Below are positions 11,320 through 55,999 of a DNA stretch of 64,000 nucleotides, piece after piece. How positions within the stretch are numbered: position 1 is the first letter of the stretch; each line of letters starts with the position of its first letter. The DNA is from Deltaproteobacteria bacterium (GTDB lineage Bacteria; UBA10199; JADFYH01): positions 43,021-107,020 of the forward strand of contig JADFYH010000003.1 in the NCBI GenBank assembly GCA_015233135.1. Direction: 5' to 3'. Made by a program: the position numbers and the translations under genes. The notes below the pieces were generated by a model. The model was given only the letters and a program-made list of their open reading frames with translations, had not been told where the DNA came from and ran no database searches.

Positions 11320-11343
11320 TCAGCTAATCTTTTAGTCTTCTTT

Positions 11344-11447
11344 CCTCCCCTTAAGCTAAGGGGAGGTTAGGAGGGGTTATGATTCAATTGTATCCAATTG
11401 TTCGTAACGCCCCCTGACCCCCTCTTACCCTAAGAGGGGGAATTTGT
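11344..11447. repeat. Composite GC-rich palindromic repeat: two hairpin units, each followed by a (t)tatgattcaa(a)tt motif.
   Basis: Hairpin 1 is cctccccttaagctaaggggagg. Hairpin 2 is ccccctgaccccctcttaccctaagaggggg. The same two-hairpin unit recurs at 36693..36812. Confidence 0.7.
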
Positions 11448-15263: not shown

Positions 15264-15755
15264 AAAAGTGGGACTTGTTTAAATTTTAAAAGTGGACTGA
15301 AAACGAATTCCCCTCTCCCCTTGGGGGAGAGGGTAGGGTGAGGGGTAAAAATGAGTACTTTGATTGACCTTTCAAAATCTCTCAGGAAAAACTCAACTCA
15401 TACAGAAAATGATCTTTGGTATTATTTAAGATCAAGGCGATTAAATGGATTGAAATTTAGAAGACAGCATCCTCTTGGTCTATACATTGTAGATTTTATA
15501 TGTCTTGAGAAGCGCATTGTTATTGAATTGGACGGTGGGCAACATGCTGCAGCTCAAAGTGAAGGTAAGAAACGAGATGAATGGTTGAAAGCAGAAGGAT
15601 ACCAAGTATTACATTTTTGGAACTCTGAATTTTATGAAAATCGTGAAGGGGTGTTGAGTCAAATTTTAGCAGCAAGTGAATGAACCCCTCACCCTGCCCT
15701 CTCCCCCAGGGGGAGAGGGGATTATTAAAAGTCCACTTTTAAATTTAGGTAACAC
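15264..15755 (+). mobile_element. Compact cassette: a DUF559 endonuclease gene between inverted terminal repeats. The inner TIRs are GC-rich palindrome units of about 36 nt; the outer TIRs are AT-rich aaaagtggact segments.
   Basis: Left unit, 15310..15345, is cccctctccccttgggggagagggtagggtgagggg. Right unit, 15685..15720, is cccctcaccctgccctctcccccagggggagagggg, a near-perfect reverse complement. The outer segment taaattttaaaagtggact (15280..15298) is the reverse complement of aaaagtccacttttaaattta (15727..15747). Confidence 0.6.
15351..15683 (+). CDS. DUF559 domain protein (Vsr / PD-(D/E)xK-like endonuclease fold).
   Basis: Characteristic LWYYLRSRRLNGLKFRRQHPLGLYIVDFICLEKRIVIELDGGQH...VLHFWNSE. 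A degenerate second copy lies at 36883..37080. Confidence 0.8.
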   Translation: MSTLIDLSKSLRKNSTHTENDLWYYLRSRRLNGLKFRRQHPLGLYIVDFICLEKRIVIELDGGQHAAAQSEGKKRDEWLKAEGYQVLHFWNSEFYENREGVLSQILAASE

Positions 15756-18185: not shown

Positions 18186-18373
18186 GTGAAACTCTTGTCC
18201 GTAAAATGTATAAGGCGAAACGTGAAATGCGGCTGCCCTATATACGCCGCTAAGCTTGATGGCAATAGCGAAAACAGGGTGGAAGGAGTTATTTAATTTT
18301 TTGCTTTGCTCTCAAAAGCGTGAAGGGTATAAGCGTGCGTCGAACTTACTCAAAAAAAGAGAGCGGACTTCCC

Positions 18374-21300
18374 ATGAATTCAAACTCCAGCATCCTTCTT
18401 GGCACTCTTCGTCCCGATTTATTAAAAGACGAAACCTTGGCCGAACTTTTTCGTGCCTCCGCCAAGACGCATCTTTCTAAGACAGCACTGATCTGCAGAG
18501 ACCAGGCTCTCAGCTATGCAGAGTTAGATCGCTGGAGCGATGCCGTGGCTGCCTCTCTTGCCAGCCAGGGCATTGGCCGAGGAGCTAGTGTAGGCGTTTG
18601 GTGGCCTCGGGGTTTAGAATTGCATGTCATTATTTTGGCTATAGTTAAATCGGGAGCGGCGTATGTGCCTCTTGATTTTGAAATGCCGGCTGAGCGGGTA
18701 GTGACGGTATTATCCGAAGTAAAGGCTGCGGCGTGTTTTAGTCCAAAAACTCTGGAGCTTAACTGTCCCACGTTGTCTGTTCCTCCTTTAATGGGCCCAG
18801 AAAATACTAAAATCCCCCTTCATCCCCCTTTTTCAAAGGGGGAGATTGGTCCTCAGTTCCAAGATTGGGCCTATGTCTTATACACCTCGGGGAGCACGGG
18901 AAAGCCCAAAGGAATCCCCATTACGCACAGTCAAATTTGTCATCTGGTTCGAGCAGAACAAAGCGTATTGGGGCTTCGAAGTGAAGACAAAGTGTATCAG
19001 GGTTTTTCGGTTTCTTTTGACATGTGGTGTGAAGAAACCTGGATCAGCTATCTAGTAGGTGCCACACTTTTTGTGGCCGATGCAGAGATGGCAAAGTCTA
19101 TTGATGAGTTGAGTGAGGTCTTGAGCAACAACAACATCACGGTGCTGCATGCCGTGCCCAGCTTACTGGCGGTGATCGACGAGCATATTCCTTCTTTGCG
19201 CTTGGTGAATGCAGGAGGCGAGGCCTGCACTGCTTCGGTACTTGCGCGTTGGGGCAAGCCTCCTCTCCAATTTTTTAATACCTATGGCCCCACCGAAACC
19301 ACAGTCACTGCAACAATTGCGGCCCTCAAAAGTGGAGAGGCCATCACCATCGGCCAACCTTTACCCAATTATGATTTGGCAATCGTCGATGAAGCGTTAA
19401 ATCCGCTCCCTTATGGCCAACGCGGAGAATTGGTCATTTCTGGCCCGGGAGTAGGACAGGGTTATATTAATCTCGTGGATTTGACGCGAGAAAAATTCGT
19501 AAAAAAACCGGCGTTGTTGGCAGCGATGCGGGGGGAAGTGATTTATCGCAGTGGGGATGCGGCGCTGATGGATGCCGAACAGAATATTTATATTCAAGGC
19601 CGTTTTGACGATCAAATCAAACTCAGAGGCTATCGCATTGAGCTGGGGGAAATCGAAGTGCGATTGAATCAGCTCCCTGGCATCTCGGCCGCTGCCGTGG
19701 CTGTTAAAAAAGACAAACAGGGTAACGATCACCTGGTGGCTTATTTAAGGAGTGAAAATCAGAAAAAAATTGAAGAAACTGAACTGCGTAACTTGCTGGC
19801 AAAGGAGTTGCCGGTCTACATGCTGCCTAGCCTTTTGGTGCAACTGAATGATTTGCCGCGCCTGGCCAGTGGAAAGATAGATCGCAAAGTTCTTCCGACC
19901 CCGGAGGCGCTGCTGCACCTTTCCGAAGAGACACAAGTGCCCCTGGATAAAAATGCCCCTTTGCGAGAGCGCGTCGTGGCGGTGTTGCAGAAGGTTTTTC
20001 CAAATCGAAGTTTGGATTTAAGCCAGGATTTTTTTGACGACTTGGGTGGGCATTCGCTTTTAGCCGCGGGATTTGTTTCCCGGATGAGAAATGAAGCGGG
20101 AGTGGAGCAAGCCTCTATTCGAGATGTCTATTTAAATCGTCCTTTGGCAGCCCTTGTCGAAAAATGGGAGACCAAGACCGAAACAAAGTCTGCGGTTCAA
20201 GACTTTCAAAAAGTGCCTGCCTGGCGCTATCTCCTGTGTGGCTTGGGGCAATCCGTTGCCTTACTTTTTATTTTTGCCTTGTTCGCGGTGCAAATTTTTC
20301 TGCCTTATCTCGCATACTATTATGTGCTGCAAGAATCTTCGAGTCATCTGTGGAGCATTGTCACTGCCCTTTTTTCCTTTTGTTTTATCCCTCCTTTTTT
20401 TTCATCGCTTACCATTGTCAGCAAATGGTTGGTGCTTGGGCGTGTGCGGGCAGGGGATTATCCGCTTTGGGGGGGGTACTATTTTCGTTGGTGGTTTGTG
20501 AAGACCATGCAGCGCTTGACGCCTATTGAATACATCAATGGCACTCCACTTTATGCGATCTATTTGCGACTACTGGGGGTTAAAATTGCTTCGGATGCGC
20601 AACTCAGTGCCTTCACCATTGCGGCAGAAGATTTGGTGACGATAGGAAAAGACGTCAGCATCAGCTCGGGCGCGGTCATGAACAATGCCGTGGTAGAAGG
20701 AGGGCTTTTAAAATTACGGGCCATCCATATTGCCGACCACGCTTATATAGGCACCAGCGCGGTGATTGCGGGAGGCTGTCGCATCGAAGAATGGGGGGAG
20801 CTGAAAGATCTGAGTTTTCTTCGTCCCAACACGGTGCTCAAAACCCGCGAAGTTTGGGGCGGGAGCCCTGCCATTCATCAGACCACAAAATCTCCAGAAG
20901 AATTGCCTCAGCCTTTGGAGGTTTCCCCGGCCACCCTCAAAAAATATAGCAAGGTGTACTTGCTCTTACTTTTGATTTTTCCTTTCACTATTCTGCTTCC
21001 TTTACTGCCCAGTATTATTGCCTTGAATGCCCTGGATAACTACGCAGCCGATTATGATTTTTCCTATTTGGTTCTTACTCCCTTGCTCAGTTTGAGCTAC
21101 ATCCTTCTCTTTGCCCTGGAGGCGATTTTTTTCACCCGCCTGCTACAGCATGGTCTGCAACCCGGTACTTATCCTGTCTATAGCAGAACCTATTTGAAAA
21201 AATGGTTTTCCGATCAAATCATGACCTTGTCTTTGTTTGTGCTGCATCCTGCTTATGCCACGGTCTTTGTGTCGACTTTGTATCGTGCCCTAGGGGCAAA

Positions 21301-22336
21301 AATTGGAAAGAATGCCGAAATTTCTACCGCCAGTCAGGTGACGCATCGTTTGTTAGAAATTGGAAATGGGGCCTTTGTGGCCGATGTCGTGGTGCTGGGT
21401 GAAGATGATGTGCGGGGGCAGCGTTTAACCTTGAGTAGAACTTCCATCGGGAATAACAGCTTTGTGGGCAACAGCGCCCTCATTCCCCAAGGTTATCATC
21501 TGCCCGACAACATGCTGGTGGGCGTGCTCTCGGTGCCTCCCACTCCAGAACAGCTGCAATCTTCAGATGCCAAGAACTGGTTTGGATCTCCCGCCATTCC
21601 TCTCCCCCGAAGACAAGAGAGTAAAGTTTTTCCCCCTGAACTCACGACCCATCCCACAAAAAAACGCCGCCTTGCACGAGGCCTGGTGGAGCTGATCCGC
21701 ATTCTCATTCCCTCCAGCGCGGTGATGAGTTTCAGCGTACTCTTTATTGCGTATGGGCATGACTTGTTGGTGGGGGATAGCTGGTGGCGATTGATCTATC
21801 AGTTTCCTCTCTATTATCTTTTTTTCGTGGGAATTCCCTCACTGCTGGTGACTGTTATTTTAAAATGGTTGTTGATTGGAAAACATCGTCCCGCTCAAGT
21901 TCCCTTATGGAGTTGGAAAGTGTGGTGCAGCGAAGCCATTACCTCTACCTACGAAGCCTTAACCGTTCCTTTTTTGCTGGAATATTTGCAGGGGACCCCC
22001 TGGCTACCATTGGTACTGCGTTTGTTTGGTGTTCGAACGGGAAAACGCGTCTGGCTCAATACCACCGATATCACCGAATTTGATGTGGTAAACATTGGCG
22101 ATGATGCAGCCCTCAACGACGAAAGCGGCCCTCAAACTCATTTGTTTGAAGATCGGGTAATGAAAATCGGCCCCGTAAAAATAGGAGCCCGCAGCAGCAT
22201 TGGCGCCCGGTCGGTAGTCTTGTACGATAGCTATGTAGGAGAAGATAGCAATCTGGAAGCCCTTTCGCTGGTGATGAAAGGAGAGAATCTCCCAGCGCAT
22301 TCGAATTGGGGGGGGAGTCCGGTGAGGCAGGGGTGA
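18374..22336 (+). CDS. NRPS-like protein: adenylation domain, thiolation (PCP) domain, polytopic membrane region, and two C-terminal left-handed beta-helix (hexapeptide-repeat) domains. This is the architecture of the so-called NRPS terminal domain of unknown function.
   Basis: A-domain core motifs LYTSGSTGKPKG, NTYGPTETT, YRSGD, GRFDDQIKLRGYRIELGEIE and LPRLASGKIDRK. PCP motif DLGGHSLLA. Hydrophobic stretches after residue 640. Repeated hexapeptide-like I/V-G blocks in two C-terminal copies. ORF starts at 18320; the ATG at 18374 is an alternative start. Confidence 0.85.
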   Translation: MNSNSSILLGTLRPDLLKDETLAELFRASAKTHLSKTALICRDQALSYAELDRWSDAVAASLASQGIGRGASVGVWWPRGLELHVIILAIVKSGAAYVPLDFEMPAERVVTVLSEVKAAACFSPKTLELNCPTLSVPPLMGPENTKIPLHPPFSKGEIGPQFQDWAYVLYTSGSTGKPKGIPITHSQICHLVRAEQSVLGLRSEDKVYQGFSVSFDMWCEETWISYLVGATLFVADAEMAKSIDELSEVLSNNNITVLHAVPSLLAVIDEHIPSLRLVNAGGEACTASVLARWGKPPLQFFNTYGPTETTVTATIAALKSGEAITIGQPLPNYDLAIVDEALNPLPYGQRGELVISGPGVGQGYINLVDLTREKFVKKPALLAAMRGEVIYRSGDAALMDAEQNIYIQGRFDDQIKLRGYRIELGEIEVRLNQLPGISAAAVAVKKDKQGNDHLVAYLRSENQKKIEETELRNLLAKELPVYMLPSLLVQLNDLPRLASGKIDRKVLPTPEALLHLSEETQVPLDKNAPLRERVVAVLQKVFPNRSLDLSQDFFDDLGGHSLLAAGFVSRMRNEAGVEQASIRDVYLNRPLAALVEKWETKTETKSAVQDFQKVPAWRYLLCGLGQSVALLFIFALFAVQIFLPYLAYYYVLQESSSHLWSIVTALFSFCFIPPFFSSLTIVSKWLVLGRVRAGDYPLWGGYYFRWWFVKTMQRLTPIEYINGTPLYAIYLRLLGVKIASDAQLSAFTIAAEDLVTIGKDVSISSGAVMNNAVVEGGLLKLRAIHIADHAYIGTSAVIAGGCRIEEWGELKDLSFLRPNTVLKTREVWGGSPAIHQTTKSPEELPQPLEVSPATLKKYSKVYLLLLLIFPFTILLPLLPSIIALNALDNYAADYDFSYLVLTPLLSLSYILLFALEAIFFTRLLQHGLQPGTYPVYSRTYLKKWFSDQIMTLSLFVLHPAYATVFVSTLYRALGAKIGKNAEISTASQVTHRLLEIGNGAFVADVVVLGEDDVRGQRLTLSRTSIGNNSFVGNSALIPQGYHLPDNMLVGVLSVPPTPEQLQSSDAKNWFGSPAIPLPRRQESKVFPPELTTHPTKKRRLARGLVELIRILIPSSAVMSFSVLFIAYGHDLLVGDSWWRLIYQFPLYYLFFVGIPSLLVTVILKWLLIGKHRPAQVPLWSWKVWCSEAITSTYEALTVPFLLEYLQGTPWLPLVLRLFGVRTGKRVWLNTTDITEFDVVNIGDDAALNDESGPQTHLFEDRVMKIGPVKIGARSSIGARSVVLYDSYVGEDSNLEALSLVMKGENLPAHSNWGGSPVRQG

Positions 22337-27087: not shown

Positions 27088-27951
27088 ATGTTCAGTCGTT
27101 TTTCGCGAATCAAATGGGGTTTTTGTTTTATCCTCCTCCTTTTAGCTTTTTCTCGTTTTTATGTCCCCATGGAAAAAACTCAAAATCGTTTTTTGGTTTC
27201 CATTTTTAATCCTCTCCTGAAAAGCAGTCATTTTTTTTCAGAACATTTTATTTCTCTTAAAAACTGGTTTTTTTGCTGGGGTGATATTTGTCAGGAAAAT
27301 AAAAATCTAAAGGATCAGCTACAAAGTAAATCCCTGCGCTTAATGGAGCTAGAAAGTATTCTTCAAACTCAAAAAAATTGGGATAAAATTCAAAACTTTT
27401 CTCTCTTTTCTACTTATGAAAAAATTCCGGCAAAGGTGTTGGCTTGCAACCCCAGCGATCTTATTCAAACGCTTCGAATCAATGTGGGGAAAAAACAATC
27501 GATTGCCCTCGGTGATCCGGTCATCGTTCCCGAAGGTTTGGTCGGGATAGTGAGCGAGGTGTATGAAGACAGCTCGGTGGTAATGTTGGTCACCGACACT
27601 CATTTTCAGGCGAGTGCTTCTCTAAAAAACAAAGTGCAGAAAGGTTTAATGAAGGGCTTTCATAAAAAGATGGATTTTGATCGCTACTTCGCGATGAATC
27701 GTTTGGAATATTTGCAAAATTCGTCGGATATTCAAGAAGGGGATGAGGCGCAAACTTCGGGCCTCGATGGTTTTTTTCCGACAGGCATCCCTCTAGGAAA
27801 AATCTCTAAGGTTTTGCGCGATGAAAAGAATTCTTTTTTGAATGCGGAGGTGATTCCTGCGGTGGATTTTTTTAGTTTGGATGGGGTACTGGTTTTGAGA
27901 AGGAGTATAGAGATCGGATTAAATTATAAACTTGAGTTCCGCAGATTTTAA
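27088..27951 (+). CDS. mreC: Rod shape-determining protein MreC
   Basis: N-terminal TM, a coiled-coil region, then the beta-rich domain GDPVIVPEGLVGIV. Sits between mreB and mreD. Confidence 0.85.
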   Translation: MFSRFSRIKWGFCFILLLLAFSRFYVPMEKTQNRFLVSIFNPLLKSSHFFSEHFISLKNWFFCWGDICQENKNLKDQLQSKSLRLMELESILQTQKNWDKIQNFSLFSTYEKIPAKVLACNPSDLIQTLRINVGKKQSIALGDPVIVPEGLVGIVSEVYEDSSVVMLVTDTHFQASASLKNKVQKGLMKGFHKKMDFDRYFAMNRLEYLQNSSDIQEGDEAQTSGLDGFFPTGIPLGKISKVLRDEKNSFLNAEVIPAVDFFSLDGVLVLRRSIEIGLNYKLEFRRF

Positions 27952-27995: not shown

Positions 27996-28100
27996 ATTTC
28001 CCCTCTCCCCTTGAGGGAGAGGGTTAGGGTGAGGGGTATTTCTAGTGCACTCAGGATCACCCTCTCTCTGACTCTCTCCCCTCAAGGGAGAGAGGACTTT
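27996..28100. repeat. Two adjacent GC-rich palindromic repeat units between mreC and mreD.
   Basis: 28000..28035 is cccctctccccttgagggagagggttagggtgagggg. A degenerate unit at 28061..28097 reads ...tctcccctcaagggagagagg. Both fall within the 5' extension of ORF 28011, which is therefore probably not coding there. Confidence 0.7.
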
Positions 28101-28184
28101 TCAGAGTGGCTTCTTACTAAAATCTGCGGAACTCAAGTTTATGTGTTACAGCCAATACATGGAATACGTGAATGTATAGGATAT

Positions 28185-36612: not shown

Positions 36613-36637
36613 TCATTTATTCCCCTCTCCCCTTGAG
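36613..36637. repeat. Left half of a GC-rich palindromic repeat unit, split by the insertion of the MITE-like element.
   Basis: cccctctccccttgag. It continues at 36839..36867 as ccccttgagggagagggcagggtgagggg, leaving a 9-bp direct duplication ccccttgag on both sides of the insert. Confidence 0.6.
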
Positions 36638-36838
36638 CATAGGTATCTACACATCTCAGCAAACTATGGGTTTTATTGACTCTGCTGTTCCTCCCCTTAA
36701 GCTAAGGGGAGGTTAGGAGGGGTTATGGAAGATCTTGCTGAACTCAAAAATACTGTAATTTGCACGGTTTTCCATAACTCCCCCAACCCCCTCTTAGCTT
36801 AAGAGGGGGCAATACCAAAAGATGTGTAGATACCTATG
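36638..36838. mobile_element. MITE-like 201-bp non-coding element with perfect 19-bp terminal inverted repeats and a 9-bp target-site duplication, nested inside the terminal repeat of the decayed DUF559 cassette.
   Basis: Left TIR cataggtatctacacatct (36638..36656). Right TIR agatgtgtagatacctatg (36820..36838). Flanking ccccttgag at 36629..36637 and 36839..36847. The interior carries the two-hairpin unit also seen at 11344..11447. Confidence 0.6.
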
Positions 36839-36882
36839 CCCCTTGAGGGAGAGGGCAGGGTGAGGGGTTCATTCACTTGCTT

Positions 36883-37080
36883 CCAATATCTGACTCAACC
36901 TAGCTCAACCACAATGCGCTTTTCCAAACATACGAAATCCACAATATAAGCTCCAAGAATAGGTTGTCTTCTAAATTTCAACCCCTTTAAACGCCTGGAT
37001 CTCAAATAGTACCAAAGATCATTTCCTGTATTTGTACTTTCCTTTCTGAGTAGTTTTGAAATGCCAACAAGTACACCCAT
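36883..37080 (-). pseudogene. DUF559 endonuclease pseudogene: an internal deletion of about 100 nt removes the conserved core and creates a premature stop.
   Basis: Minus-strand ORF 36895..37080 encodes MGVLVGISKLLRKESTNTGNDLWYYLRSRRLKGLKFRRQPILGAYIVDFVCLEKRIVVELG*, about 80% identical to the first 61 aa of the 15351 protein. The downstream remnant ...gaagcaagtgaatga matches the 3' end of the intact copy. Confidence 0.7.
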
Positions 37081-37088
37081 TTATTTCT

Positions 37089-37125
37089 CCCCTCACCCAG
37101 ACCCTCTCCCCCAAGGGGAGAGGGG
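37089..37125. repeat. GC-rich palindromic repeat unit, here the upstream terminal repeat of the decayed DUF559 cassette.
   Basis: cccctcacccagaccctctcccccaaggggagagggg. Its reverse complement matches the left TIR of the intact cassette, including the spacing to the ATG. Confidence 0.7.
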
Positions 37126-37317
37126 AATCCTTTCTGCCTATTTCTAATTCTTGATTGTGATACAAGTTCTTCATCCTACTCAATCCTTTTCTTATCCGCT
37201 ACTCGTACATATTCCCTACCCTTAAATATCTCAAATTTACCCACTCAGTTTCGTGATGAGCCTCCTTTAATAAAATGCAGAAAAAATATTTTGTGCAAAC
37301 CTTGGGAGCTTTAAGTT

Positions 37318-54133: not shown

Positions 54134-55945
54134 ATGTCTTCCAAAATTATACAGCTCCCTCCCGAGATAGCCGAAAAAATTGCGGCGGGCGAAGTGGTCG
54201 AGCGGCCTTTGTCAGTCGTCAAAGAACTGGTCGAAAATAGTGTAGACGCCGGGGCCACGCGAATTGAGGTTTTTCTGGAAGAGGGGGGGAAGAAGCTCAT
54301 CCGGGTTCAGGACGATGGCATGGGTATGAATCCCAGCGAAATGCGGCTGGCCTTGCAAAGGCATGCAACCTCCAAAGTAAAAAGTCTTGAAGATCTTTTT
54401 GCTATTTCTACCCTGGGTTTTCGGGGAGAGGCCCTGCCTTCCCTGGCGGCCATCTCAAAATTCTGCTTACAAAGCCGCTCTCGAGAAGAAAACTCTTTTG
54501 CCTACGAGCTTTATCTGGAAGGGGGTAAATCGATTCACGAACGCGAAGTGGGGCATCCTTTTGGGACCACGATAGAAATCAGCGAACTTTTTTATAACAC
54601 CCCGGCACGACTGAAATTTCTCAAATCGAGTGAAACAGAATGGAACCATATCGAAGAATTCATCACCGCGATGGCCTTGGCTCATCCCGAAGTGCAATGG
54701 GTGGTACGTCATCAGGATAAAGAAAAAATTCGATATGTTCAAAAAGGGCTGCAAGATCGAATGCTCGAGGTGTGGGGGAAAGAGGTTTTTAGCGGATTTT
54801 ATCCCTTGTTGCAGGAACAGGGCGATTACAGTCTGCAAGGCTACATTGCGCATCCCAATCTTTCCAAATCACAGGCGCGCGGCCTGTATGTGTTTGTGAA
54901 TGGGCGTTGGGTAAAAGACCGTTTACTGAATCATGCGGTATCGACCGGCTATCGCAATTTACTGATGCAACATCAGTATCCGCTGGTGGTTTTATTTCTG
55001 AATCTGCCTGCTTCCGAGGTGGATGTGAATGTGCATCCTACCAAACGCGAAGTGCGTTTTGTGAAGACGCAGTTTGTGCACCATTTTATTTCGGAGGCAA
55101 TTCACGCGGAGTTGGTGAAGGCGCCGTGGGTGGAGAAGCAGTTGCCAGTAGATTCCTTTATCCCCCCTGAATCCCCCCTTAATAAGGGGGGGTGGGGGGG
55201 TGTTTCCAATTGGAAAAAAGAAAATTTCGATTCTCTTTCTTCCCAACGAAAAGCACAAAGTGAACTCGAGTGTTTGACCCCTCACCCTAACCCTCTCCCC
55301 CAAGGGGAGAGGGGACTGGGACGGGGAGTGGGGGAGCAAGTAGCAAAAGCCGGCGTGCTCCCCTTCGCCTCGCTCAAAATCATCGGCCAACTCAAGCTCA
55401 CCTACATTTTATGCGAGTCCGAACATCATCTCGTCCTCATTGATCAACACGCCGCCCACGAGCGTTTGGGGTATGAACAGATCAAAAAATCTTACGAAAA
55501 ACGAGAGCTCAAAAGCCAGAATCTTCTGGTGCCCGAACAGCTAAACCTGAAAGAATCTGAGCTGGAGCTGATTCGCCCTTATCAGGAAAAATTTGAAGAG
55601 CTGGGTTTGAGGGTTGAAGAATTTGGTAGAGATTGCCTGCTCGTGAAGGCCGTGCCAGAAATTTTGGGAAAGCTGGAGGTTAAAAAGTTGATTGAAAATA
55701 TTTTGGAAGATCTGAAAAATTTTCCTCAAAGTCGAAGGCTGGAAGAAAAGCTGGATCATCTCTTTGCAACCATGGCCTGTCACCGGCAGGTGCGGGCAGG
55801 GGATAAGCTGGCGAGGGAAGAAATGCAGGCCCTGATTTCTCAACTCGATGCCGAAGCGGTGCTCTATCACTGTCCCCACGGGCGTCCGCTGATGGTGCAG
55901 GTGTCTTATGCGGAGATTGAGAAGTGGTTTAAGAGGGTGCTGTAA
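54134..55945 (+). CDS. mutL: DNA mismatch repair protein MutL, with two palindromic-repeat insertions in-frame in the inter-domain linker.
   Basis: N-terminal GHKL ATPase: AIKELVENSVDAGAT-like VKELVENSVDAGATRIEV and DDGMGM. C-terminal dimerisation domain: IIGQLKLTYILCESEHHLVLIDQHAAHERL. The linker (around 55162..55340) encodes PPESPLNKGGWGG and PHPNPLPQGERGLGRGVG from the repeats. Confidence 0.9.
   Translation: MSSKIIQLPPEIAEKIAAGEVVERPLSVVKELVENSVDAGATRIEVFLEEGGKKLIRVQDDGMGMNPSEMRLALQRHATSKVKSLEDLFAISTLGFRGEALPSLAAISKFCLQSRSREENSFAYELYLEGGKSIHEREVGHPFGTTIEISELFYNTPARLKFLKSSETEWNHIEEFITAMALAHPEVQWVVRHQDKEKIRYVQKGLQDRMLEVWGKEVFSGFYPLLQEQGDYSLQGYIAHPNLSKSQARGLYVFVNGRWVKDRLLNHAVSTGYRNLLMQHQYPLVVLFLNLPASEVDVNVHPTKREVRFVKTQFVHHFISEAIHAELVKAPWVEKQLPVDSFIPPESPLNKGGWGGVSNWKKENFDSLSSQRKAQSELECLTPHPNPLPQGERGLGRGVGEQVAKAGVLPFASLKIIGQLKLTYILCESEHHLVLIDQHAAHERLGYEQIKKSYEKRELKSQNLLVPEQLNLKESELELIRPYQEKFEELGLRVEEFGRDCLLVKAVPEILGKLEVKKLIENILEDLKNFPQSRRLEEKLDHLFATMACHRQVRAGDKLAREEMQALISQLDAEAVLYHCPHGRPLMVQVSYAEIEKWFKRVL
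55162..55205. repeat. cccccTGA...cccccttaataaggggg-type palindromic repeat inside the mutL coding sequence.
   Basis: tcccccctgaatccccccttaataagggggggtggggggg. A sister copy lies at 55946..55990, just after the mutL stop. Confidence 0.65.
55278..55314. repeat. GC-rich palindromic repeat unit (the same family as the DUF559 cassette TIR) inside the mutL coding sequence.
   Basis: cccctcaccctaaccctctcccccaaggggagagggg, translated in frame as TPHPNPLPQGERG. Confidence 0.7.
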
Positions 55946-55990
55946 TCCCCCCAACCCCCCTTAATAAGGGGGAGAAATTCTGGGGGTAAA
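55946..55990. repeat. cccccttaataaggggg-type palindromic repeat in the mutL-miaA intergenic gap.
   Basis: tccccccaaccccccttaataagggggag. Confidence 0.65.
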
Positions 55991-55999
55991 GGTTAAAAT

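Follow-up and report, generated by a model that had tools for sequence, protein, structure and literature searches.

The window analyzed here is a 64,000-nucleotide stretch of DNA (44.6% GC) from an uncultured bacterium classified as a deltaproteobacterium (contig JADFYH010000003.1 of assembly GCA_015233135.1, positions 43,021 to 107,020 of the forward strand), and coordinates are those of the window unless another locus is named. Its mutL gene contains two short palindromic repeats that are translated in frame, and a third copy lies directly behind the gene. Similar repeats are dispersed across the window, and some of them bracket genes of the DUF559 family (vide infra).

MutL and the repeats in and behind its gene

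A protein search returned 8000 homologs of the encoded protein, the closest of which is 79% identical; the nearest of them come from metagenome-assembled genomes labelled Deltaproteobacteria or ‘bacterium’. Pfam models place a GHKL ATPase (HATPase_c_3, aa 27-129), a transducer (DNA_mis_repair, aa 212-327) and a C-terminal dimerisation domain (MutL_C, aa 417-559) along the sequence, and these domains, together with the DQHA(X)2E(X)4E and CPHGRP motifs, identify an endonuclease-type MutL. The motifs IDQHAAHERLGYE and CPHGRP are both present in the translation and form invariant columns in alignment A1, which contains the 23 homologs on which the AlphaFold model was built. In that model both MutL domains are confident, and aa 335-408 are the sole long low-confidence stretch; this part of the linker, which is hypervariable in alignment A1, holds both elements. 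As the initial annotation had proposed, the conserved domains flank the repeats: both segments lie between DNA_mis_repair and MutL_C, and the motifs are intact.

The open reading frame (ORF) is read straight through both elements, and the encoded peptides are exactly those first annotated. The site 1 element is translated as PPESPLNKGGWGG (aa 344-356, nt 55163-55201), within the codons ATC CCC CCT GAA TCC CCC CTT AAT AAG GGG GGG TGG GGG GGT (aa 343-356), and the site 2 element as TPHPNPLPQGERGLGRGVG (aa 382-400, nt 55277-55333), with the codons ACC CCT CAC CCT AAC CCT CTC CCC CAA GGG GAG AGG GGA CTG GGA CGG GGA GTG GGG. Both repeats were found where they had been annotated, but their limits needed adjustment, with the site 1 element ending at 55200 instead of 55205 and the site 2 element extending as a G-rich run to 55334. 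The site 2 core consists of a C-tail (CCCCTCACCC), the trinucleotide TAA and the hairpin CCCTCTCCCC-CAA-GGGGAGAGGG; the layout of site 1 is given in the table.

That these segments are copies of a repeat is evident from matches elsewhere in the window, for which dinucleotide-preserving shuffles served as chance controls. The 18-mer CCCCCCTTAATAAGGGGG occurs at 55173, within site 1, and again at 55955, 10 nt past the mutL stop, with no matches in the shuffles. The 23-mer core of site 2 is found at six loci in the window with at most three mismatches and is likewise absent from the shuffles, and 55277-55315 and the intergenic copy at 27999-28037 are 97% complementary over their 39 nt. The identical 18-mer at 55955 belongs to the third copy, which had been correctly placed immediately after the gene and which starts two bases past the stop codon.

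Both in-gene cores are 39 nt long, a multiple of three, and each element is free of stop codons in three of the six combinations of orientation and frame, so that survival in frame is reasonably likely. The sense strand of both elements contains canonical four-tract G-runs, and between them the elements bring four pairs of short direct repeats and three G7/C6 runs into mutL. The suggestion that in-frame insertions are tolerated in a disordered linker is supported by the existence of near-identical intergenic copies, by a predicted local distance difference test score (pLDDT) below 50 across aa 335-408, and by the finding that no homolog has these peptides as native sequence. The site 1 peptide is absent from every homolog in alignment A1.

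Folding energy was also considered as evidence for the elements and was dropped. Folded as single-stranded DNA with Watson-Crick pairing, the hairpins reach -10 to -16 kcal/mol (-15.6 kcal/mol for site 1), but their z-scores are only -1.2 to -2.1, within an overall tested range of -0.2 to -2.1, because shuffled sequences with C-blocks and G-blocks fold almost equally well.

The repeat class and its known relatives

The repeats were compared with several known systems. The closest are the BoxC or PIT elements of Escherichia coli, which are reportedly treated also in the work of Bergler in 1992 and of Hoyne and Maher in 2000, and for which we know of no function or means of spread established since the 1990s. 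The BoxC repeat was renamed first as PIT elements and then as TMECO, a ‘potential intrastrand triplex’ motif (Holder et al. 2015, PMC4666352). According to the same study (PMC4666352), TMECO follows the pattern 5'-CCCTCNCCC N3-6 GGGNGAGGG N3 GGGNGAGGG-3', with 23 copies in K-12 and 3610 in 262 proteobacterial genomes. A single strand forms an intrastrand triplex in vitro, as judged by circular dichroism and nuclear magnetic resonance, with folding in vivo not shown; the elements have neither promoter nor terminator activity, and their loci are tied to local deletions and rearrangement between E. coli strains. In K-12 they are described as ‘always located intergenically’, and no link to mobile elements was found (PMC4666352).

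The TMECO pattern is matched exactly at 55279-55313 on the minus strand, at 28001-28035 and at 37090-37124, and not once in 100 shuffles. The first of these matches is site 2 itself, where the non-coding strand of mutL reads CCCTCTCCCCTTGGGGGAGAGGGTTAGGGTGAGGG over 35 nt. Site 2 and the two other copies fit the pattern down to the TTA ‘type A’ second loop, and the family as a whole resembles BoxC/PIT/TMECO in being dispersed and multi-copy, with no strand bias and with frequent inverted pairs. The same 22-mer, GGGAGAGGGTTAGGGTGAGGGG, adjoins ycjD in E. coli.

There are also differences. The intergenic location described for the K-12 set, which is not part of the structural definition, does not hold here, as two copies in mutL are translated; the family brackets a DUF559 gene; and the host belongs to an uncultured lineage at 45% GC and is not an enterobacterium. 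Site 1 and several other copies in the window, with C6/G7, CCTCCCC or CCCCCTC stems, share the architecture only. Because of the exact pattern matches, the repeats are nevertheless best assigned by their sequence to the already known BoxC/PIT/TMECO class and not to a new family, and it is the setting that appears to be new: translated, within a mismatch-repair gene, and recurrent.

The initial annotation had drawn a parallel with Rickettsia palindromic elements (RPE), dispersed palindromic repeats that reportedly insert in frame into protein-coding genes, as described by Ogata and co-workers in 2000. The additional peptide encoded by RPE lies away from the folded core, which is why they are tolerated, and the parallel is sound as to this behaviour, since the mutL elements are also in frame within an ORF whose encoded fold is undisturbed. 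It does not extend to membership. RPE are about 100-150 bp long, whereas the elements in the window span 30-58 nt and are of the BoxC/PIT/TMECO class, which had not been recognised; this separation is one of description, without alignment of the sequences. To our knowledge, RPE are confined to Rickettsia, have no associated nuclease gene and have no known sequence relationship with the elements in the window, and the parallel is probably best regarded as a functional analogy and not as family membership.

At gathering thresholds, Rfam has no match anywhere in the window. Three family A copies, site 2 included, resemble the whalefall-1 model (RF01762) on their G-rich strand, and they share with its consensus a UCUCUCC/GGAGAGA hairpin followed by AGGGUGAGG. 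However, the matches reach 15-17.5 bits, short of the gathering score of 37, and the 24-nt internal segment of the model is missing from the copies, which rules out membership. Other sub-threshold Rfam matches on the elements (miRNA/snoRNA) are chance matches.

Related MutL linkers and competing explanations

Eleven homologs that are 53-79% identical to the MutL of the window provided clade DNA for comparison, giving 12 genes with the window. In the closest relative (L003, 79% identical), site 1 is occupied by another element between the same conserved anchors, consisting of CCTCACCC, a nested mini-hairpin and then CCTCTCC-TACTTT-AGGAGAGG. At site 2, the flanks, C-tract and G-arm are common to L003 and the window, and the element is remodelled by a 15-nt block that is present or absent in each direction. 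The mutL-miaA spacer of L003 consists of TAATTTTATG only, and is thus an empty site, while that of the window has about 50 extra bases that hold the third copy. Alignment with relatives had been put forward as a check on lineage specificity, and it came out in favour of insertion: site 1 and the post-stop site differ in L003, and only site 2 is shared with it. From these sequences, site 2 is older than the split between L003 and the window, and site 1 and the post-stop copy are not; such differences are expected of elements that are gained and lost over time.

One or two perfect C-arm/G-arm hairpins with tracts are present in the linkers of seven of the 12 clade mutL genes, that of the window included, although this frequency is biased, as five of the six other element-bearing genes were picked for their repeat-like peptides; the remaining five genes have none. 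An apparent count of seven out of seven was an artefact of choosing by eye, since the five unselected homologs lack elements. The hairpins differ in stem, position and orientation from gene to gene, with some G-rich strands antisense, and some of the stems, such as CCTCCCCTTAA-TTAAGGGGAGG and CCCCCTCTTA-TAAGAGGGGG, match intergenic variants in the window. Across the 12 genes, 19 perfect hairpins of at least 8 bp fall in 2.9 kb of linker, compared with three in 18.7 kb of domain-coding DNA. Linkers measure about 60-100 aa with or without elements. As a distant control, 80 mutL genes with 34-41% identity were drawn from a metagenome scan with universal MutL motifs, and two of them (L122 and L163) have such elements, again in the linker. 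The MutL linker is therefore a recurrent sink for palindromic elements.

Several details of these linkers stand apart. The two distant genes are unrelated mutL genes of 67-69% GC with TMECO-like linker elements, and in L163 these form an inverted pair about 65 nt apart. Both linker elements of L003 carry a nested 20-nt mini-hairpin, GAAAATG-N6-CATTTTC (1815-1834 and 1983-2002 of that locus), which was found nowhere else in the window or in 169 loci; a comparable AT-rich mini-hairpin lies between the hairpin and the G-tract upstream of a DUF559 gene in L066. The mutL gene of L172 (6001-7797 of that locus) has no C/G hairpin, and instead has a purine block, GGGGAGGTGAGGAGAGAGGAGTGAGGAGTGAGGTGA, with a complementary array of CCTCAC-type hexamers about 57 nt downstream that is read as SPLTPHPSPSPPLTPHSSPS, forming a long-range inverted repeat of in-frame 6-nt units. 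Other perfect in-frame palindromes are found in the linkers of L171 (GTAAGGGCAAAT-GATT-ATTTGCCCTTAC) and L166 (GGGCAATTCA-TGAATTGCCC), and as these are of other kinds, the linker collects palindromes from more than one family.

The mutL segments are probably tolerated, near-neutral passengers from a dispersed selfish family of G/C-rich hairpin-plus-tract repeats, lodged in a disordered linker. Copies would have landed in, or been copied into, the stretch of mutL coding for the unstructured tether that joins the ATPase domain to the dimerisation/endonuclease domain. They may persist there through a core length divisible by three, the availability of stop-free frames and a Pro/Gly-rich peptide that would fit an unconstrained linker. 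The elements would then turn over on the timescale of genus-level divergence and, as a by-product, supply a mismatch-repair gene with G7/C6 runs and with direct repeats that are prone to slippage. A ratchet may contribute, in that an in-frame insertion in a needed gene could be removed only by exact or in-frame deletion; the accumulation in linkers fits either such a ratchet or active maintenance.

Some observations weigh against this explanation. Among the relatives compared there is no true pair of empty and filled sites for site 1 or site 2, and no target-site duplication, the mark by which the copies were compared with miniature inverted-repeat transposable elements (MITEs), can be made out next to the two copies in mutL or the one after its stop. 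Insertion, as opposed to local growth, is consequently something that we infer and not something that is seen. Site 1 misses the strict TMECO sequence pattern and preserves only the C-arm/G-arm/G-tract layout (C6, loop, G7, T, G7), and the frequency of elements in the clade is inflated by the selection described above. Every linker copy has a perfect stem of 9-10 bp without a mismatch, and the density of elements in the linker exceeds that in the surrounding intergenic DNA in several loci. Both could reflect recent arrival or upkeep by selection, and stems as perfect as these are not an obvious outcome of pure neutrality.

It is possible, though unlikely, that the repeats constitute a reversible mutator switch, in which slippage in the G7/C6 runs or direct repeats, or structure-induced deletion, would inactivate MutL, raise the mutation rate and then revert. 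Slippage of 6-bp tandem repeats in mutL is reportedly a mutator route of this kind in E. coli and Salmonella, as described by Shaver and Sniegowski in 2003 and by Chen and co-workers in 2010. In those genes, as here, slippage-prone repeats lie inside mutL and are able to inactivate it; there, however, the repeats are short, in tandem and in the ATPase region, with demonstrated changes in length, whereas here they are dispersed hairpins in the linker for which slippage is only predicted. In simulations, a -1 or +1 change in the G7 run, or deletion between the C6/C6, G7/G7 or C-tail/C-arm repeats, always truncated MutL at 345-398 aa, before MutL_C. The raised local deletion and rearrangement at TMECO loci in E. 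coli (PMC4666352) would also suit a switch, as would the recurrence of hairpin elements in MutL linkers at a higher density than in nearby DNA. However, 32 further G or C runs of at least six (G6-G10 and C6-C8) lie in ORFs of the window outside mutL, five clade members do without any element, and a candidate in-frame copy is also found in an unrelated nonribosomal peptide synthetase (NRPS) gene. Homopolymer runs can thus be ruled out as a special mark of mutL, and many runs prone to slippage are tolerated in the coding DNA of this genome.

A benefit at the level of the protein or mRNA is somewhat less probable again. Here, Pro/Gly-rich peptides would tune the length or flexibility of the linker, or an mRNA prone to hairpins and G-quadruplexes would pause translation between the domains. 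The four-tract G-runs on the sense strand of both elements, the long and disordered linker, and the steady linker length regardless of elements are consistent with such a role, but the sequence, position and orientation of the elements vary by genome, to the extent that some G-rich strands are antisense, and linkers of similar length exist without any element. The remaining possibility, that native linker sequence resembles the repeats through its Pro/Gly-rich composition alone, is effectively refuted. MutL linkers are often Pro-rich, and low complexity can mimic repeats, but composition is a poor account of an exact match to a defined motif over 35 nt and of a 97% match to an intergenic copy over 39 nt, neither of which arose in shuffles, of a site 1 peptide common to no homolog, or of a copy of the site 1 subfamily 10 nt past the mutL stop. 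The initial annotation had named repeat-free homologs with the same linker peptides as the sign of native sequence; no such homolog was found, and the five clade homologs without elements have unrelated linkers. Passenger repeats tolerated in the linker thus remain the preferred explanation for the mutL segments.

Other copies in the window and the DUF559 genes

Repeat finding and a hairpin scan detected 16 perfect elements in the 64 kb of the window, compared with 14 in 383 kb of unrelated metagenome flanks. Two of these are in the mutL ORF, one is the candidate in the NRPS ORF and 13 are intergenic. Their common architecture is a C-rich arm, a loop of 3-7 nt and a complementary G-rich arm, with a second C-tract on the 5' side or a second G-tract on the 3' side at a distance of 1-5 nt. 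The stem varies by subfamily (CCCTCTCCCC, CCCCCC, CCTCCCC, CCCCCTC and CTCCCTCCC). Inverted pairs are present at two intergenic positions and around both DUF559 copies.

Table. Positions of mutL, its repeat copies and the related features of the window
Feature	Position	Strand	Description
mutL CDS	54134..55945	+	From ORF listing, uninterrupted, 603 aa; MutL of the endonuclease type (motifs DQHAAHER and CPHGRP)
Linker-coding stretch	55136..55357	+	aa 335-408; AlphaFold pLDDT <50, predicted disordered; between Pfam domains (aa 327 / aa 417)
Site 1 element	55162..55200	+	C6 / TGAAT / hairpin CCCCCCTTAATAAGGGGGG(G) / T / G7; from sequence and repeated 18-mer core; in-frame peptide PPESPLNKGGWGG
Site 2 element	55277..55334	+	39-nt core 55277-55315 plus G-rich extension to 55334; in-frame peptide TPHPNPLPQGERGLGRGVG
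Third copy, site 1 subfamily	55946..55999	+	Fills mutL-miaA spacer; 18-nt core identical to site 1
Two intergenic copies with other stems	11342..11440	+	CCTCCCCTTAAGCTAAGGGGAGG plus tail; CCCC-TGA-CCCCCTCTTACCCTAAGAGGGGG; from repeats (one 100% identical over 40 nt)
DUF559 cassette 1	15307..15721	+	Element (hairpin + G-tail) 15307-15346, ORF 15351-15683 (110 aa), inverted element (C-tail + hairpin) 15684-15721
Candidate in-frame copy	18808..18843	+	TCCCCCTT-CA-TCCCCCTTTTTCAAAGGGGGA, peptide IPLHPPFSKGE; in ORF 18320..22336, 1338-aa NRPS-type adenylation protein
Intergenic inverted doublet	27999..28100		27999-28037 (exact TMECO pattern, TTA loop) and variant 28056-28100
DUF559 cassette 2, degenerate	36839..37127	-	Element-gene-element unit like cassette 1, with 121-nt internal deletion
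Solo variant copy, intergenic	48502..48546	+	From repeat finding and hairpin scan
Intergenic inverted doublet	59726..59833		Variant 59726-59772 and family A copy 59794-59833, the latter 98% complementary to 15307-15346

The copy in the NRPS gene sits in a variable stretch before the SGSTGKPKG motif, with about eight extra residues relative to one LgrA domain and none relative to the other, and it is a candidate insertion only, not an established one. The stem variants of the two copies at 11342-11440 are found again at 36688-36727 and 36780-36809, and L166 and L169 also have them in their mutL linkers. The first intergenic doublet is enclosed by a perfect 25-bp inverted repeat, ATAAACTTGAGTTCCGCAGATTTTA (27926-27950 / 28118-28142), and a similar left end, TTGAGTTCTGCAGATTTTAAGAAT (59694-59717), precedes the second, which suggests that the doublets may be parts of larger composite elements of about 217 bp. 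At 36620-36868, the loop of a family A hairpin is interrupted by a 201-nt MITE-like insertion (36638-36838) whose terminal inverted repeats measure 19 bp (CATAGGTATCTACACATCT / AGATGTGTAGATACCTATG) and which has a direct duplication of 9 bp (CCCCTTGAG); this insertion itself carries the two elements at 36688-36727 and 36780-36809. Long homopolymers (G10, C8 and G8) are found in ordinary ORFs at 2839-2848, 2436-2443, 20469-20476, 22308-22315 and 45338-45345. Examples include the peptide RAGGGAY in a BatD-like protein and a G10 run in an ORF unrelated to mutL.

The flanking elements of cassette 1 belong to family A and are inverted, with arms that are 95% complementary. The ORF between them is a DUF559 gene (Pfam E=1.2e-39; NCBIfam PRK09767, YcjD family) with weaker similarity to the MTES_1575 restriction endonucleases, and the closest solved structure is PDB 3HRL, the ‘endonuclease-like protein’ NGO0050 of N. 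gonorrhoeae (E=2.5e-24). Cassette 2 retains a 61-aa ORF remnant (DUF559 E=6.9e-19; phmmer E=1.9e-26), and its distal hairpin is the one split by the separate insertion at 36638-36838. When the two cassettes are compared (alignment A2), the homology reaches as far as the outer hairpin edge on either side and stops there. The Vsr / PD-(D/E)XK group of nucleases, of which DUF559 is a part, includes a homing endonuclease (PMC3424549).

This arrangement extends well beyond the window. One genome per species was scanned for relatives of the cassette 1 protein, and the best 80 loci (L006-L085) were kept, which span Gallionella, Pseudomonas, Nitrospirota, Omnitrophota, Dehalococcoidia, Saccharibacteria, Melainabacteria, Rickettsiales and others. 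With a hairpin defined as a perfect C-arm/G-arm pair of at least 7 bp, one is present within 150 nt upstream of the gene at 55 of 79 loci, in 49 of these with a G-tract beside the gene, and one is present at or just after the stop codon at 47 of 78. Control windows from the same loci contain a hairpin in only seven of 459 cases. Hairpins lie on both sides of the gene at 37 of 75 loci, and 25 of these 37 pairs share their arm sequence. The association of DUF559 genes with the repeats is thus widespread. No DUF559 gene was found near mutL in 650 kb of mutL loci besides the window.

There are 26 distinct G-arm sequences at these loci, and the third tract resembles its own G-arm more closely than permuted ones (0.809 vs 0.769 +/- 0.009), which fits either a triplex or alternative pairing, neither of which is proven. 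The G-tract by the DUF559 start codon often resembles a ribosome-binding site, for example GGGAGAGGGTAAATG. At six loci (L007, L011, L016, L022, L041 and L065), another conserved block is found upstream of the gene, ACTCCCCCCTTG(A/G)GGGGGAGT-CGGCAAG-CAAGG-CG...CCGCAG-CG-GCCGGTGGGGGG, and this may be another structured element.

In E. coli K-12 (L002, NC_000913 1351000-1352200), ycjD has its stop codon within a TMECO-like hairpin, in the loop of CACCCTCTCCC-TGA-AAGAGCGAGGGGG, behind which come a partial duplicate of the 3' end of ycjD and then a full TMECO copy, upstream of fabI. Across E. coli, ycjD takes the place of the eef operon in phylogroups A, B1 and C (PMC12817139), and strains of these phylogroups have 19-30 TMECO copies, compared with 1-2 in phylogroup B2, which lacks ycjD, a difference that is confounded by phylogeny (Table S1, PMC4666352). 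DUF559 proteins are also 14-fold enriched among predicted inversion targets, which are genes between inverted repeats (PMC9881135). No literature was found that links DUF559, COG2852, ycjD or repeats in the MutL linker to these repeats, although subscription journals were mostly outside the search and an earlier report is possible.

A comparison can be made with REP/REPIN elements, which are reportedly short, dispersed, imperfect palindromes found both alone and as inverted doublets, as described by Nunvar in 2010 and by Bertels and Rainey in 2011. Their partner RAYT is a single-copy IS200/IS605-type Y1 transposase gene that lies between two inverted repeats. Short palindromes, solo copies, inverted doublets and a gene between inverted repeats are common to both systems, so that the DUF559 arrangement looks like that of REP elements around RAYT, but the flanked gene here encodes a DUF559 / Vsr-like PD-(D/E)XK nuclease and not a Y1 transposase. 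Tentatively, and with somewhat less than even confidence, the BoxC/PIT/TMECO elements could be non-autonomous partners of the DUF559 gene, which encodes a YcjD-type, Vsr-like PD-(D/E)XK nuclease, and the copies in MutL linkers could be fallout from their spread. In such a system, the nuclease, encoded between two inverted copies, would recognise or cut the hairpin or triplex structure, and repair would copy the DUF559 gene or the elements into new sites. The result would be a REP/RAYT-like or homing-endonuclease-like system with a different enzyme, present in many phyla. The family in the window may then have spread with the aid of the nuclease whose gene it brackets.

The mutL gene described here adds a new and clear-cut case of selfish palindromic DNA within a housekeeping gene, and it extends into coding sequence a repeat class that was thought to be strictly intergenic. 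The MutL linker emerges as a recurrent safe harbour for such elements, both in the clade (seven of 12 genes, five of the seven chosen for their peptides) and among unrelated genes (two of 80). With structures linked to instability, and with G7 runs, inside a mismatch-repair gene, a self-inflicted mutator route becomes testable. The most interesting outcome lies outside the coordinates originally annotated, where this class of repeats is paired with DUF559 nuclease genes across phyla. This link offers a testable candidate for the spreader of the BoxC/PIT/TMECO elements, and it also hints at a role for the very widespread DUF559 proteins.

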